12,525 bases of DNA from a virus (taxonomy: Duplodnaviria > Heunggongvirae > Uroviricota > Caudoviricetes): IMG/VR virus record IMGVR_UViG_2711768034_000010; one strand, 5' to 3'. Of this stretch, positions 294 through 12,488 are shown piece after piece. Positions within the stretch are counted from its first letter, which is position 1, and each line of letters begins with the position of its first letter. Both the position numbers and the translations under genes were made by a program. The notes under the pieces are model-generated. The model did no database searches, was not told the DNA's origin, and saw only the letters and a list, made by a program, of their open reading frames with translations.

Positions 294-666
294 ATGATCT
301 AGCGGCGCGACGTAAAGCGGCGTTGAAAGCAATTATAGTGACCGGCCGGCATTGGTACTTCACACGGTTAGAATGGCTCTGAAATAAAAAAACATCTTCT
401 GGATAGCGTTCTCTTCTACGAGCAATGATCCCCTCCACTGGAGGGGTTGATTTAACACGTAGCTCCTTCAGGTGACCCTGTTTTCGTATCAGTATCAAGT
501 CACCATCAATATCATCATATCGAATACTCAGCAGCCTTCCAGCGCTTAAACCCGTGTGAAAAATTAACGCCCACAAGTCAGCCCATGTATCTGAGATGGA
601 AACAAGATTGCTGTTAATAGTTAAAAATTGCTCAAAACTTATTGTTTTCTTACCGTTCACGAACAA
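294..666 (-). pseudogene. Tyrosine recombinase catalytic-domain fragment, 3' end cut by IS2 and no proper start
   Basis: Minus-strand ORF 253..666 contains FHTGLSAGRLLSIRYDDIDGD (box-I-like region with Ser where the Arg is usual) and RPVTIIAFNAALRRAARSL (patch preceding box II). The reading frame runs into the IS2 terminus at 293 before any HxxR...Y motif. The ORF opens with TTG directly after an in-frame TGA (679-681), so no N-terminal core-binding domain is encoded. Confidence 0.5.
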
Positions 667-743
667 ACCAAACTGTTTTCAAAGCTGAATGAATTGATTA
701 AGCCAAACGTAACATATCAGGAAAAGTAGTGAAATCTTTGCCT

Positions 744-956
744 TCAAGTCGCCGGGAGGTACTTGTAGATTGTTTTCACGTCCACGCCTGTCACATCAGC
801 CACCTGCTGCCGGGTAGCGCCGTTCTCCAGCATTCTGCGGCACCGCTCCACCACTTCTTCAGTCATTATCCGGCGGCGGCCGCCGACTCTCTCCTGCTCC
901 ATCGCTGCGGACCGACTCGGATGCATTCGGCAAATTCTAGGCCGTGATTTTTCCAA
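744..956 (-). pseudogene. Serine recombinase (Hin/Gin/Pin-type) C-terminal HTH remnant; catalytic domain absent
   Basis: C-terminal 45 aa GGRRRIMTEEVVERCRRMLENGATRQQVADVTGVDVKTIYKYLPAT resemble the C-terminal HTH of DNA invertases (compare Gin ...GGRPRAINKHEQEQISRLLEKGHPRQQLAIIFGIGVSTLYRYFPAS). The ORF starts with TTG; an internal ATG at 902 would give 52 aa. No upstream resolvase catalytic domain in frame. Overlaps the 3' end of the 266-aa gene. Confidence 0.35.
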
Positions 957-1737
957 TCCTCTCCATCAGATATGCCAGGATGACATCCAGTGTGCTGGTC
1001 CCATATGCATATTTGCCGGGGAAAACCAAACATTCTGACAAAACGGATGTTAACGGAGACACTGAACCATTGCCTGCTCCGCCAATACTCATTTTTTGAG
1101 ACGGGCTATACGCTGGGATTGTATAGCCCGTCACTTGTCGGCTGGTCACTGCAGACTGATCTGACCGCTGGTATGCAATTGCATAGGATCCAGCAGCCTT
1201 GTTAGAGCACATAACTACAGCGCAGAATAAAGATTGCCCTATATTGTTAGGAGTAAATGCCAGATCGGCCTCGATCCCTCCATTCAGAAAAATCGGGAAT
1301 GAACCTGCTGACGTTGTACGAATGCCGACGCCATGAGGTGTGCTTTCCTGGGTTGCGATAACCGCTCTGTCCTGTGGCGTAGCCGGAAGCGCCCCACCTG
1401 GCAGCTGATAGATGAATGCAAAAGTATTGATGTTTGCGTCCATAACCACCGCCGTATCACCAGCCATGCCGGATGCACCGGAGAAATTAAGCCCCTGCAA
1501 AACAGAACCATTCAGCTTTGTGGATGGCTCGAGGGTCTCCAGTGACTTGAAAAGTCCGCCATCTAATCGGTTAGAGATAGCTACTACTTTTGCACCAGAC
1601 CCCATTTTTAGAAACTCTGTCTTCACTGGTGTCCATACTGATGGGGATAGTTCTGAGATCGCTTTCTCTGCCGCTGTTTGTGAGTACACAGGGAGTAAGG
1701 GGTTATTCAGTCCAGTTAGTGTGTAAATCAGTCTCAT
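937..1737 (-). CDS. Hypothetical protein (266 aa) translationally coupled downstream of the tail-type esterase gene; possibly tail-fibre associated
   Basis: ATG at 1737 lies 9 nt after the upstream stop, with GAGGA overlapping that stop (minus strand TGAGGATAAAAAATG). Long ORF with no antisense alternative of similar length. No family recognised. Confidence 0.55.
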   Translation of the reverse strand: MRLIYTLTGLNNPLLPVYSQTAAEKAISELSPSVWTPVKTEFLKMGSGAKVVAISNRLDGGLFKSLETLEPSTKLNGSVLQGLNFSGASGMAGDTAVVMDANINTFAFIYQLPGGALPATPQDRAVIATQESTPHGVGIRTTSAGSFPIFLNGGIEADLAFTPNNIGQSLFCAVVMCSNKAAGSYAIAYQRSDQSAVTSRQVTGYTIPAYSPSQKMSIGGAGNGSVSPLTSVLSECLVFPGKYAYGTSTLDVILAYLMERIGKITA

Positions 1738-1746
1738 TTTTTATCC

Positions 1747-3741
1747 TCAGAAAACGTTAATACGAAAAGCGGGGAGCCAGTCGTAAAGAGTCACGGATGT
1801 GTCATACACCCATATGATTCCAGCGGAAGATCGAACACACCCTCTTGCACCAAGAGTCCGCCCGGAAGGTTTTACAGATGCGCCGCTCTGAAGTGGGTTT
1901 TCTGCTGTCGCATAGGAAACGCGCCCAAAACGTCCAGAGGGGGCGGTCGCCAGGTTAATCAGCACGCCCTTGCCGTCCGAGCTGATCGCGATGCTCGATA
2001 TAGCAGGTGGAGCACCAGTCTCATCCGTGTAGCTAAAGCCGTAATTGGCCAGACCGGAGGTGTTGATCGTAGTCGTGTCCAGCACCAGGTTCGTATACGC
2101 TGGGACATTGATTTGTATCTGCGTGGGTGAGTTCCACACGAAACTGGTCGGAACCATCCCTGACCAGCCGCTCGTAAACCACTCCTGGAGAAGCGCTCTC
2201 GCCACAGCTGCTCCGCGCCGGTTCTGGCCCGCACACGTCAAGTGCAGACCGTCTGAAATAAAATCGTACTGGTACAAACTATTGACCAGCCTGAATTGCT
2301 CTTTTCCGTGCAATCGCGTCGACGCCAGTCGCGCGTACTGGCCTGTAAATGCACCATGCCCGTCATTGACATACCCCAGCTGGGTAATGGCGATAATCGG
2401 CGGTTCGTTTTGACCCGTTCTTGCGATGATGTCGCTGGTGATTTGTCTCTGGTACTGCCTCATCCGTGATTCATACATTCCTTCTCGTAATCCTGACCAG
2501 TCCTCGTCGGACTCTCCCTGCATCCAGTCAACGCAGAGAACAATCGGCAGCCAGCCGCGTGCTTTACAGGCCGTTACGCAGTCTTCGATTGAATCGAGCA
2601 GATACTGATATACCTGGTTACCCCGTTTCTGGTACTCGTAAGCCTGACCAGACTGCGCACATACGATTGATAGCGTGCGCGGCATGATTCCGGTAGCTGC
2701 AGCCATATCGCGAATGAAGGTGTTCGCGAGGCCGCTTGCGGCCGTTTCTTTATCTGTCCCACTTACTGCCTCAACCAGTGGCACCAGAGTAGTGCTGCGT
2801 GTCCCTGTACGCCTAACCCCGCCGCTGAGCATGAAAGCGTTATCAGGATATATCGGCGTTGCTGCGACAATGGTTTGATCGGCGTCAGGACAATATCCTC
2901 GAGCGTTGGATTGCCCAGCAGTCACAAAGATAAAACATACAGGCACTGTCTCTGAGTAGGGGTACACAGTAGACCCTGACAAATGAAGTCCATACTCAGG
3001 GAGCTGGTTGGCATCATCGTCGCCACCACCACCGCCATTTCCGTTATTAACAGCTACCAGGCCACCGTCTGAGTAAATCCAGTGCTTCCCACCAACCGTA
3101 TAAGCTTCAACGATCTGGTTTGTGGTTGAATCAACCGTCATCCGCCACACTTTTTCACCGCCAATAAACTGCGGTATAGAACCCTCCCGGCCCAGCGCAT
3201 AGAGTTCGGATTCTTGTTGGGTTAAAAGTTCGTAATATTTTCCGTCAGGACCGATTTGAATTAATCTGCCGCTTGTATTTAAAAATGGAGCCACGCGGGA
3301 AGTCTCCGGATCATATGCTGCCAGGGTCACGCTGTCTGGCGATACCTGGTATGCGTAGTCGTCACGAACCATCCGCCGTCCGGTTGGCTGCAGCGTTCCA
3401 GCGAGGTTGATATACTCATCGGCCAGAGAGCTTCCGTCCTGACTGCGGACATAGGTTGTTGAACCTGCCGGAATATTCGCAATATCCGCCTGCGCCGCCG
3501 CCAGCGTCATGTACTGCCGGCTGAGAGGGATCAGGTTTTGGCGGGCTTCATCAATAACAGCGTCGGTAGCAGCTGCCATTTTTTTAGTAGCCCCAATTAT
3601 CGTATCCTGGGCGTTACCAAAACGATCTATAAAAGTATCGCTTTCGCTGTTCAGGAAATCATCGTACGCCAGGGCGTTATCATTCAGATCCTTCATGCTA
3701 TTTGAAGGTCTTGGATTGCCGGTATTATATCTTTTGTCCAT
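1747..3741 (-). CDS. Large tail-type protein with central SGNH/SASA-like esterase domain (putative O-acetyl esterase tailspike or tail fibre)
   Basis: Long minus-strand ORF. Motif FVTAGQSNARGY (GQSN block I of sialate-O-acetylesterase-type SGNH hydrolases) and, about 220 aa later, FISDGLHLT (DxxH block V). Start chosen at ATG 3741 (AGGA 7 nt upstream); in-frame alternatives at 3759 and 3810. Confidence 0.65.
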   Translation of the reverse strand: MDKRYNTGNPRPSNSMKDLNDNALAYDDFLNSESDTFIDRFGNAQDTIIGATKKMAAATDAVIDEARQNLIPLSRQYMTLAAAQADIANIPAGSTTYVRSQDGSSLADEYINLAGTLQPTGRRMVRDDYAYQVSPDSVTLAAYDPETSRVAPFLNTSGRLIQIGPDGKYYELLTQQESELYALGREGSIPQFIGGEKVWRMTVDSTTNQIVEAYTVGGKHWIYSDGGLVAVNNGNGGGGGDDDANQLPEYGLHLSGSTVYPYSETVPVCFIFVTAGQSNARGYCPDADQTIVAATPIYPDNAFMLSGGVRRTGTRSTTLVPLVEAVSGTDKETAASGLANTFIRDMAAATGIMPRTLSIVCAQSGQAYEYQKRGNQVYQYLLDSIEDCVTACKARGWLPIVLCVDWMQGESDEDWSGLREGMYESRMRQYQRQITSDIIARTGQNEPPIIAITQLGYVNDGHGAFTGQYARLASTRLHGKEQFRLVNSLYQYDFISDGLHLTCAGQNRRGAAVARALLQEWFTSGWSGMVPTSFVWNSPTQIQINVPAYTNLVLDTTTINTSGLANYGFSYTDETGAPPAISSIAISSDGKGVLINLATAPSGRFGRVSYATAENPLQSGASVKPSGRTLGARGCVRSSAGIIWVYDTSVTLYDWLPAFRINVF

Positions 3742-12286: not shown

Positions 12287-12293
12287 TTCTTTG

Positions 12294-12325
12294 GCGTCGG
12301 AGCATGCTTCGGCGCTAGAATTTTT
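12294..12325 (+). terminator. Possible terminator after int (imperfect)
   Basis: Stem GCGTCGGAG (12294-12302), loop CATG, CTTCGGCGC (12307-12315) with two G-U pairs, then T5 at 12321-12325 after a 5-nt gap. Weak. Confidence 0.3.
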
Positions 12326-12352
12326 CTCAGTGGATTTTCTCAATTTTTCTCA
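12319..12352 (+). repeat. Direct repeats between int and attL (candidate arm-type Int-binding sites)
   Basis: AATTTTTCTCA at 12319-12329 and again at 12342-12352, with a third TTTTCTCA at 12335-12342. Confidence 0.35.
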
Positions 12353-12398
12353 TCGGGATGCAGGTCACTGAAAGGGAATGCTGTAAGTGTTTGAATAG

Positions 12399-12488
12399 TG
12401 GCGGAGAGAGGGGGATTTGAACCCCCGGTAGAGTTGCCCCTACTCCGGTTTTCGAGACCGGTCCGTTCAGCCGCTCCGGCATCTCTCC
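12399..12488 (-). tRNA. serU: tRNA-Ser, anticodon CGA
   Basis: Reverse complement is GGAGAGATGCCGGAGCGGCTGAACGGACCGGTCTCGAAAACCGGAGTAGGGGCAACTCTACCGGGGGTTCAAATCCCCCTCTCTCCGCCA. It has a 7-bp acceptor stem, anticodon loop CUCGAAA (anticodon CGA), long variable arm, TPsiC arm GGGGGTTCAAATCCCCC and 3' CCA. Confidence 0.9.

Follow-up and report, generated by a model that had tools for sequence, protein, structure and literature searches.

A probable grounded prophage at serU in Escherichia coli: deletion junctions, insertion sequences and the genes left behind

What keeps a few phage genes in place once the genes for making a phage have gone? The question is raised by a 12,525-nucleotide stretch of DNA (IMG/VR record IMGVR_UViG_2711768034_000010, Caudoviricetes; here the window, with its positions prefixed w), which carries an integrase, a repressor module, a nuclease-like gene, a Dam-family methyltransferase, an acyltransferase and a tail-type esterase. 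An earlier note, made from the letters alone, described it as a prophage stripped to immunity, defense and surface-conversion functions and maintained for the host's benefit, or alternatively as a satellite of another phage. The element is in all likelihood an ordinary grounded (defective) prophage of E. coli type, inserted at serU, the gene for tRNA-Ser(CGA).

The segment w293-12460 forms the right-hand ~12 kb of a remnant whose whole length is ~13.8 kb of phage DNA plus the insertion sequence (IS). It is integrated at a phage att site between direct att repeats: the attR core overlaps the 3' part of serU, and a 78-nt direct repeat, 95% identical to that core, adjoins yodB in PCN061, HS and GCA_045610645.1. 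RefSeq labels this yodB-side repeat 'tRNA-OTHER' or a partial tRNA (PCN061, HS). PCN061 and the other carriers examined at this locus have yodB on one side of the element and serU on the other. An Rfam scan of the window matched the tRNA only. Genes essential for the lytic cycle are gone. Profile scans of all sizeable open reading frames (ORFs) matched no replication, antitermination, lysis, terminase, portal, capsid, sheath, tube or baseplate family, in line with the earlier note, which had listed replication, lysis, terminase, capsid and tail-tube genes as missing. Structural DNA is partly kept, as one complete tail-fiber gene, its 266-aa partner and the C-terminal 217 residues of a second fiber. 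The family scans (Pfam, PHROG, NCBIfam and PADLOC-DB v2; ORFs of at least 50 aa for satellite functions) bear out the earlier gene inventory (int, repressor/cro/cII, a gene in the rex slot, Dam, acetyltransferase and esterase) with corrections, and add what it had missed: a RusA'::fiber chimera, an invertase helix-turn-helix (HTH) fragment, an integrase-like fragment and a truncated ea fragment (Table 1).

Table 1. Features of the window, with the position of the DUF450 gene in loci extracted from relatives in the last row (coordinates of those loci).
Feature	Position (w)	Strand	Basis and remarks
IS2 right end	1-292	+	C-terminal part of orfB transposase (ORF w16-282; rve_3); terminal inverted repeat ending ...GGGGCAAATCCA
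Integrase-like fragment	253-666	-	phrog_19751; phrog_1 integrase positions 268-387/611
Serine DNA invertase/resolvase C-terminal HTH fragment (pseudogene)	744-956	-	Pfam HTH_7; phrog_125 DNA invertase
266-aa protein, no assigned function	937-1737	-	travels with tail-fiber C-terminal cassette
Tail fiber with SASA (SGNH-type) carbohydrate O-acetylesterase domain, complete	1747-3810	-	PF03629, residues 294-542
87-aa ORF	3843-4106	+	phrog_20491; WP_024186701.1 in relatives; always with acyltransferase
Acyltransferase-3 membrane protein	4106-5197	+	PF01757; phrog_3333 O-acetyltransferase
RusA(1-63)::tail-fiber(45-261) chimera, 280 aa	5176-6018	-	Pfam Gly_rich_2; phrog_34 RusA; phrog_863/6202 tail fiber
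Dam-family (D12) methyltransferase, truncated	6028-6822	-	profile matches begin at about position 27-30
cII-like regulator (YmfL / Phage_CP76)	6895-7347	-	PF06892; phrog_101
Cro-like regulator, YdaS family	7376-7639	-	PF15943, 104 bits against cutoff 30; phrog_35
RacR-type prophage repressor	7741-8217	+	NCBIfam NF049929 equivalog, 254 bits against cutoff 200
HSDR_N/DUF450 PD-(D/E)xK nuclease-like gene, 384 aa	8388-9542	+	PF04313; phrog_4225; 37% GC
99-aa hypothetical gene	9952-10251	+	collinear with MIN9 and KpF5; phrog_15091, phrog_1033 and PF17762 listed jointly for this and the next gene
ParB-like early-left gene	10251-11036	+	collinear with MIN9 and KpF5; families as above
Truncated ea-region gene	11164-11322	+	phrog_28696, positions 1-51 of 102
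Tyrosine integrase	11312-12286	+	PF00589
attR core repeat	12384-12460		overlaps 3' part of serU
tRNA-Ser(CGA), serU	12399-12488	-	ARAGORN; Rfam
DUF450 gene in relatives' loci	6001-7155 (L017/L018); 6001-7158 (L019-L022)

Three deletions and one IS crippled the prophage

Breakpoints were placed by base-level BLAST and by comparing junction sequences with the serU remnant of HS, Klebsiella phage KpF5 (OR327748) and the serU prophage of E. coli MIN9. Three illegitimate deletions and one IS crippled the prophage. At the first junction, J1 (w5830/5831), codon 63 of rusA runs in frame into codon 45 of a glycine-rich tail-fiber gene, with a 2-nt TA microhomology alone between the parental ends. The ~25 kb lost there runs from inside rusA to inside the first tail-fiber gene and took with it Q and the lysis, terminase, head, tail and baseplate genes. 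At J2 (w6748/6749), again with TA microhomology, 1.3 kb is gone, comprising the O-like replication gene, a DUF4222 gene and the first 29 residues of Dam. J1 and J2 are the two junctions for which both parental sequences are known, and both show the 2-nt microhomology. J3 (w11317/11318) joins an ea gene, cut at about codon 51, to integrase codon 9; the loss takes in the remaining ea genes, integrase codons 1-8 and, in the xis position, a DUF4224 gene. The DUF4224 gene is present in Ec-U1 and in MIN9, where it lies next to int. The integrase itself is 99% identical to that of KpF5, its native N-terminus MGRKRAPG replaced by MML, and the element presumably can no longer excise. All ten complete genomes and four assemblies that carry the element share these junctions, so the remnant arose once. 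The missing lytic genes and the three mapped deletions support the earlier judgment that virions are unlikely to be made.

Two of the junctions created altered genes. The RusA::fiber chimera is probably meaningless, because it is frameshifted in a sister genome (a 1-nt deletion at w5665 in GCA_045610645.1) and carries G120R or G212E in two others. The methyltransferase is of the D12 class, as the earlier note had it, although it is no longer a whole gene: alignment with intact phage Dam shows the native first 29 residues, including the KWAGGK motif, replaced by unrelated residues, and profile matches accordingly begin downstream of them. In the E. coli Dam structure 2G1P, the lost residues align with 5-31. 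The catalytic domain keeps motif I (EPFVGGGS) and DPPY but is incomplete. The KWAGGK segment, which we take to contact AdoMet and DNA, is gone and the truncated enzyme is for that reason probably dead, to judge from the 2G1P alignment and general knowledge of the enzyme; a literature search on the role of the Dam N-terminus returned nothing usable. Relative to every relative examined, the window's truncated Dam also carries a private A224V change (w6152).

The parental sequences are those of full-length phages. KpF5 is 93-99.6% identical to w5830-12460, and the MIN9 prophage is an equally good match; the early region is collinear with both, and prophages with complete tails carry an identical fiber module. 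KpF5 and MIN9 share with the window int, ParB, repressor, cro, cII, Dam and rusA at 93-99.6% identity, in the same gene order and, for MIN9, at the same att site. They also have what the window lacks: the O-like gene, full Dam and RusA, Q, a gene at the xis position next to int, and genes for lysis, terminase, head and tail. KpF5 also differs in its tail module, which is of the siphovirus type, unlike the window's tail-fiber remnants. The MIN9 prophage spans ~44 kb with a full gene set: early genes (int, DUF4224 in the xis position, ea, ParB, repressor, cro, YmfL, DUF4222, O-like replication, Dam, RusA, DUF968, Q-like), late genes (holin, lysozyme, terminase, gpW, portal, S49 protease, decoration, capsid, sheath, tube, tape measure) and distal genes (baseplate J, gp46 and YmfQ, tail fibers, and a cargo slot).

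A second remnant at the same site, in HS (NC_009800, 2,062,552-2,082,159), decayed differently. It shares with the window the insertion site, the attL-side fragments, a 99.98% identical esterase/acyltransferase/fiber module and an integrase C-terminal part that is 99.9% identical. The segment w293-5831 as a whole is 99.98% identical to the distal late region of HS and continues there into YmfQ, baseplate, portal and terminase genes. Unlike the window, HS has lost the whole early region and, from int, the N-terminal 40%, while keeping terminase, portal, protease, decoration and baseplate genes. Two or more deletions are peculiar to HS (locus 1-13160): the first spans capsid through tape measure, and the other reaches from the lysis/early region to mid-int, joining at w11708. 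At the level of sequence, HS decayed independently from an ancestor that was shared or identical. In isolate 2015-01-2097, an apparently complete prophage in a different att site ends with the same acyltransferase/fiber module. Comparing the tRNA-Ser locus across strains, as the earlier note had proposed, thus yielded the three junctions, the IS events and HS as a second path of decay.

On this evidence, the ancestor would have been a ~44 kb temperate phage in the 3' end of serU, with a lambda-like head, a contractile tail, a Mu/SfV-like baseplate and a Rac-type early region (RacR, a YdaS-like Cro and a CP76-type cII), a type represented by MIN9, the 2015-01-2097 prophage and KpF5. J1, J2 and J3 would have crippled this phage, and IS2 would have landed later in an already dead left fragment. 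The leftovers would then be a repressor, a nuclease-like gene, a self-contained low-GC acyltransferase moron, an orphan fiber esterase and pseudogenes. The simplest account of which genes survived is the placing of the deletions, together with a possible dependence on the repressor; selection for cargo would not be needed. Incomplete prophages generally lose replication, packaging and lysis genes and keep tail-fiber, integrase and transposase genes (PMC7744054).

Repressor module, nuclease-like gene and IS erosion

The immunity module is of the Rac type in that RacR and YdaS are matched, while the third gene belongs to the Phage_CP76/YmfL type and not to YdaT. The repressor region is ~97% identical to KpF5 at the DNA level, and racR is intact in all carriers. 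If expressed, the repressor probably still silences pR and would give immunity to KpF5-like phages.

Behind the repressor lies the DUF450 gene, in a position like that of lambda rexAB: racR ends at w8217 and DUF450 starts at w8388, in the same direction. Its protein is 100% identical in KpF5, homologues at 60-90% identity occur across Enterobacterales, and more distant ones, at ~30%, are found in temperate phages from other phyla. In Salmonella, Providencia and Yersinia, DUF450 sits 9-67 bp 3' of a repressor and is read in the same direction. The repressors ahead of it vary among E. coli/Klebsiella, Salmonella, Providencia and Yersinia, being RacR-type, short HTH_3 or HTH_3+S24 proteins. In Y. 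pseudotuberculosis, the repressor-DUF450 pair alone is left between host genes.

Comparisons with known proteins gave little. At E <= 0.01, PADLOC-DB v2 returned no match for DUF450, the ParB-like protein, the repressor, the acyltransferase or the esterase; Dam was the sole protein matched, by orphan or type II methyltransferase models. A sequence search of DUF450 against the PDB found nothing meaningful. Its AlphaFold2 model has a mean pLDDT of 67 and a pTM of 0.42, and Foldseek found no match for it in the PDB at E <= 0.001. Weak resemblances in that search suggest that the N-terminal part of the model may be similar to restriction-enzyme nuclease domains and the C-terminal domain to YdhG/DUF1801. 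A literature search on DUF450 or HSDR_N in prophages found nothing relevant. By analogy of position, the gene is a candidate exclusion or defense gene. The rexAB genes are co-expressed with cI in lysogens from their position behind the repressor, and BstA of phage BTP1 is another repressor-linked exclusion gene. DUF450 resembles rexAB in lying directly 3' of the repressor, in the same direction, in four genera; unlike rexAB, it has no sequence relationship to RexA or RexB and no PADLOC family, and it is repeatedly inactivated in this E. coli lineage.

This inactivation is seen among very close relatives. Among 5,426 complete E. coli genomes, ten contain w293-12525 with 99.9-100% identity, and all known carriers (these ten and the four assemblies) are ~99.8-100% identical. 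They differ from the window by 0-14 substitutions over a shared ~11-12 kb, seven nonsynonymous and six synonymous in total; carriers so few and so nearly identical leave no power to detect selection, the substitutions being too few for dN/dS. In seven of the complete genomes, ISKpn26 replaces DUF450 with a 1.1 kb deletion over w8448-9553. In one each of the others, IS1 splits the gene at w8650-8658, IS1 clips its 3' end at w9489-9497, and IS3 at w8324-8331 separates it from the repressor. In strain AB66, cro is disrupted by ISEc52. Genomes that are otherwise only a few SNPs apart have collected six independent IS events. Five of these (ISEc52, IS3, IS1 twice and ISKpn26) cluster in the cro-DUF450 stretch, w7499-9553. 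DUF450 or its upstream region, 8.9% of the element, received four of the six (binomial P = 8e-4 under uniform insertion). Such clustering points either to a hot spot for ISs or to a cost of carrying the gene, neither of which speaks for its upkeep in defense.

The AB66 remnant, near-identical elsewhere, also carries five substitutions within 380 bp (w9446-9828), 3' of its IS1-split DUF450. The cluster suggests a short recombination patch from a related phage.

Tail-fiber esterase and acyltransferase module

The tail-type esterase reported earlier is present, but it is a virion tail fiber and not cargo for the host. It is 687 aa long (664 aa from the RefSeq start at w3741), and phrog_4201 'tail fiber protein' aligns to it over positions 38-674 of 676. 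Its N-terminal ~145 aa form a conserved anchor common to many fiber PHROGs and linked to the acyltransferase. The same N-terminus with a neighboring acyltransferase occurs in 16 other E. coli genomes, where the C-termini are SGNH/GDSL, TolB-like or CotH kinase-like, a clear case, as far as sequence can tell, of an exchangeable receptor-binding cassette swapped among prophages. By its architecture, the esterase is a receptor-binding or receptor-modifying fiber of the virion, and it is an orphan because no tail is left to which it could attach. A sequence search against the PDB gave no match.

RefSeq names the protein 'sialate O-acetylesterase'. Sialate O-acetylesterases known as NanS-p are encoded by Stx prophages, and gp63.1 of phage G7C is an esterase tailspike. 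The window's protein shares with both a prophage-encoded SASA/SGNH carbohydrate esterase domain. Unlike NanS-p, it has a tail-fiber anchor, the phrog_4201 match and an exchangeable cassette, and no DUF1737 was found in it; its architecture is not that of a secreted metabolic esterase. The adjoining 266-aa protein has no family match in the profile scans and may be a fiber partner or chaperone. It and the esterase C-terminal cassette also occur together in two unrelated phages, Escherichia phage AV124 and Klebsiella phage KpnBHU6.

The acyltransferase module (w3843-5197) has a GC content of 37%. Its main gene encodes an Acyl_transf_3 membrane protein and is carried as a low-GC prophage moron beside tail-fiber genes, in intact prophages as well; by sequence family and setting, it is a candidate surface-polysaccharide O-acetylase that would acetylate a surface glycan of its host. 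Oac of Shigella phage Sf6 is the O-antigen acetyltransferase of a serotype-converting phage. Like Oac-type enzymes, the window's protein is a single ~360-aa Acyl_transf_3 membrane protein encoded by a low-GC moron near the tail-fiber/att end of a temperate phage. It differs from them in lying between two tail-fiber genes on the opposite strand and in showing no similarity to a characterized phage Oac at E <= 1e-5 among 50,697 phage records. In the same records it has no close homologue, the matches being of 25-29% identity and none of them characterized. In MIN9, the slot matching the acyltransferase/esterase module (locus 9580-12370) instead holds opposite-strand genes for a HAD-family hydrolase and a GT-A glycosyltransferase. 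From this difference in content, the distal tail-fiber region is a variable locus for glycan-modifying cargo among phages of this family.

Alternative readings and setting of the remnant

Since w1-292 is IS2, coordinate 294, at which the region described earlier begins, is an IS junction and not the end of the prophage; in GCA_045610645.1 the prophage continues beyond IS2 to attL. The window thus starts inside IS2, and a contig of GCA_001268745.1 that is 100% identical to it also stops there, so the window alone is compatible with a rearranged but intact prophage that has its structural and lysis genes immediately left of the window. The left flank can be read in GCA_045610645.1, a 4.6 Mb contig with the same IS2 junction and 99.95% identity to the window. 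It holds IS2 (1,327 bp), ~1.3 kb of fragments (a umuC fragment, a 52-aa ORF and a 123-aa umuD-like ORF), attL and then yodB, zinT, msrQ and msrP. No structural genes lie left of the element there or in the ten complete genomes, which lack the IS2, and the late genes were lost at the internal junction J1 and not at the window edge. We reject the intact prophage on the strength of this flank; it is extremely improbable. The satellite proposed earlier, a mobilizable island with an integrase and regulators that hijacks the structural proteins of a helper, would share with the element its small size, integrase, att repeats, repressor module and lack of structural genes. Against it, the ORFs searched include no replication initiator or primase, no AlpA- or Stl-type regulator and no capsid-size redirection, Ppi, small terminase or capsid gene, and deletion has taken the xis-position gene and the N-terminus of the integrase. 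Every segment is, moreover, collinear and 93-99.6% identical with full-length phages across clean junctions, gene for gene, and the terminase region, where the packaging site is expected in relatives, falls within the 25 kb deletion, so that the site is presumably absent. An element with no replication or hijack genes, derived from a full phage by collinear deletion, is scarcely credible as a satellite, and we reject that reading as well.

Domestication is the harder case. It holds that the host keeps the remnant for immunity from the repressor, defense by the nuclease and glycan modification by the acyltransferase. The DUF450 family occupies its rexAB-like slot behind different repressor types in four genera, down to the bare pair in Y. 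pseudotuberculosis; the acyltransferase is intact in every carrier; and incomplete prophages commonly keep host-beneficial genes (PMC7744054; PMC3105296). The cargo as a set is nevertheless not intact. DUF450 is deleted, split, clipped or cut off from its repressor in ten of ten complete genomes and is without a PADLOC match, Dam is truncated, and the esterase is a part of the virion. The remnant is rare and near-identical among its carriers, its 13 substitutions carry no signal, and the window's acyltransferase, itself without a characterized close relative, has a private P248S change (w4847) against every relative examined. Maintenance for cargo is therefore unproven and partly contradicted, and we regard it as quite unlikely; the acyltransferase and the repressor alone would fit such a story. 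Some observations do weigh against simple decay. The acyltransferase is intact in all 20 genomes seen, the HS-type and window-type paths both kept the esterase/acyltransferase module, the nuclease region took four IS hits against none in the equally AT-rich acyltransferase module (P ~0.05), and both ORF fusions (RusA'::fiber and a leader fused to Dam) preserve the reading frame, a mildly surprising outcome if chance alone were at work. The intactness of the acyltransferase and the absence of IS hits in it leave room for selection on this one gene. A further proposal makes DUF450 a single-gene anti-phage or exclusion system in the rexAB position, costly and repeatedly knocked out by ISs, and the acyltransferase a selected modifier of surface glycans. 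It strikes us as rather improbable, but a selected acyltransferase, if real, would explain why both decay routes kept the module. Addiction, by analogy with the K-12 Rac prophage, would have the immunity module persist because loss of the repressor de-represses toxic early genes of the YdaS/cII type. The repressor passes the RacR equivalog threshold, Cro is of the YdaS family and racR is intact in all carriers; in K-12, racR is reported to be essential because it represses ydaS-ydaT (PMC5700377 and PMC5700373). The cII-like gene here is, however, of the CP76/YmfL type and not YdaT, the standing of YdaS/T as true toxins is disputed (PMC5917428), and AB66 still keeps racR although its cro is already disrupted. 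Addiction would account for only ~1 kb of the element, and we consider it unlikely.

Read as a grounded prophage, the element takes its place beside the cryptic prophages of K-12 (Rac, e14, DLP12 and CP4-57) and other grounded prophages. Like them, it is a remnant integrated in a tRNA or other gene, has lost its lytic functions by deletion and ISs, and keeps an integrase, a repressor module, tail-fiber pieces and morons; its immunity module is of the Rac type. Unlike the K-12 elements, it occupies the serU att site, descends from a parent with a lambda-like head and a contractile Mu/SfV-like tail, carries a CP76/YmfL cII, lacks a gene in the excisionase position, and is young and rare. The remnant itself matters little, as its retention pattern is textbook for defective prophages. 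It is a clean worked example, with deletions mapped to the base, HS as an independent path and six IS events over a very short time. The DUF450 family is the one modest lead: if it is a defense gene, it would add a widespread prophage-borne system across Enterobacterales that is absent from PADLOC. A promoter and terminator scan of w3300-9000 gave counts not above shuffled controls and was not used.

The left end holds further fragments. IS2 sits inside the integrase-like fragment, which is 140 aa in relatives, where it is named 'site-specific integrase' or hypothetical, and 137 aa here, its C-terminus swapped by read-through into IS2. Annotated IS2 copies in 4,273 E. coli genomes match the window's IS2 end at 100% identity. 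The insertion at w292/293 is in none of the 5,426 complete E. coli genomes, and an exact 31-mer across the junction has 0 matches in GTDB representative genomes; a look-up of the exact protein of the IS2-truncated ORF found the four NCBI assemblies that share it. RefSeq notes the invertase fragment in relatives as 'incomplete; missing N-terminus'. The attL-side block as a whole (the invertase HTH fragment, the 140-aa integrase-like fragment, a frameshifted umuC and a umuD-like S24 peptidase) recurs at serU in the window lineage, in HS and in the MIN9 prophage (locus 14091-16102), which is otherwise intact. It is missing from the related intact prophage that occupies a different att site. The block may be debris of an older serU occupant rather than part of this phage.

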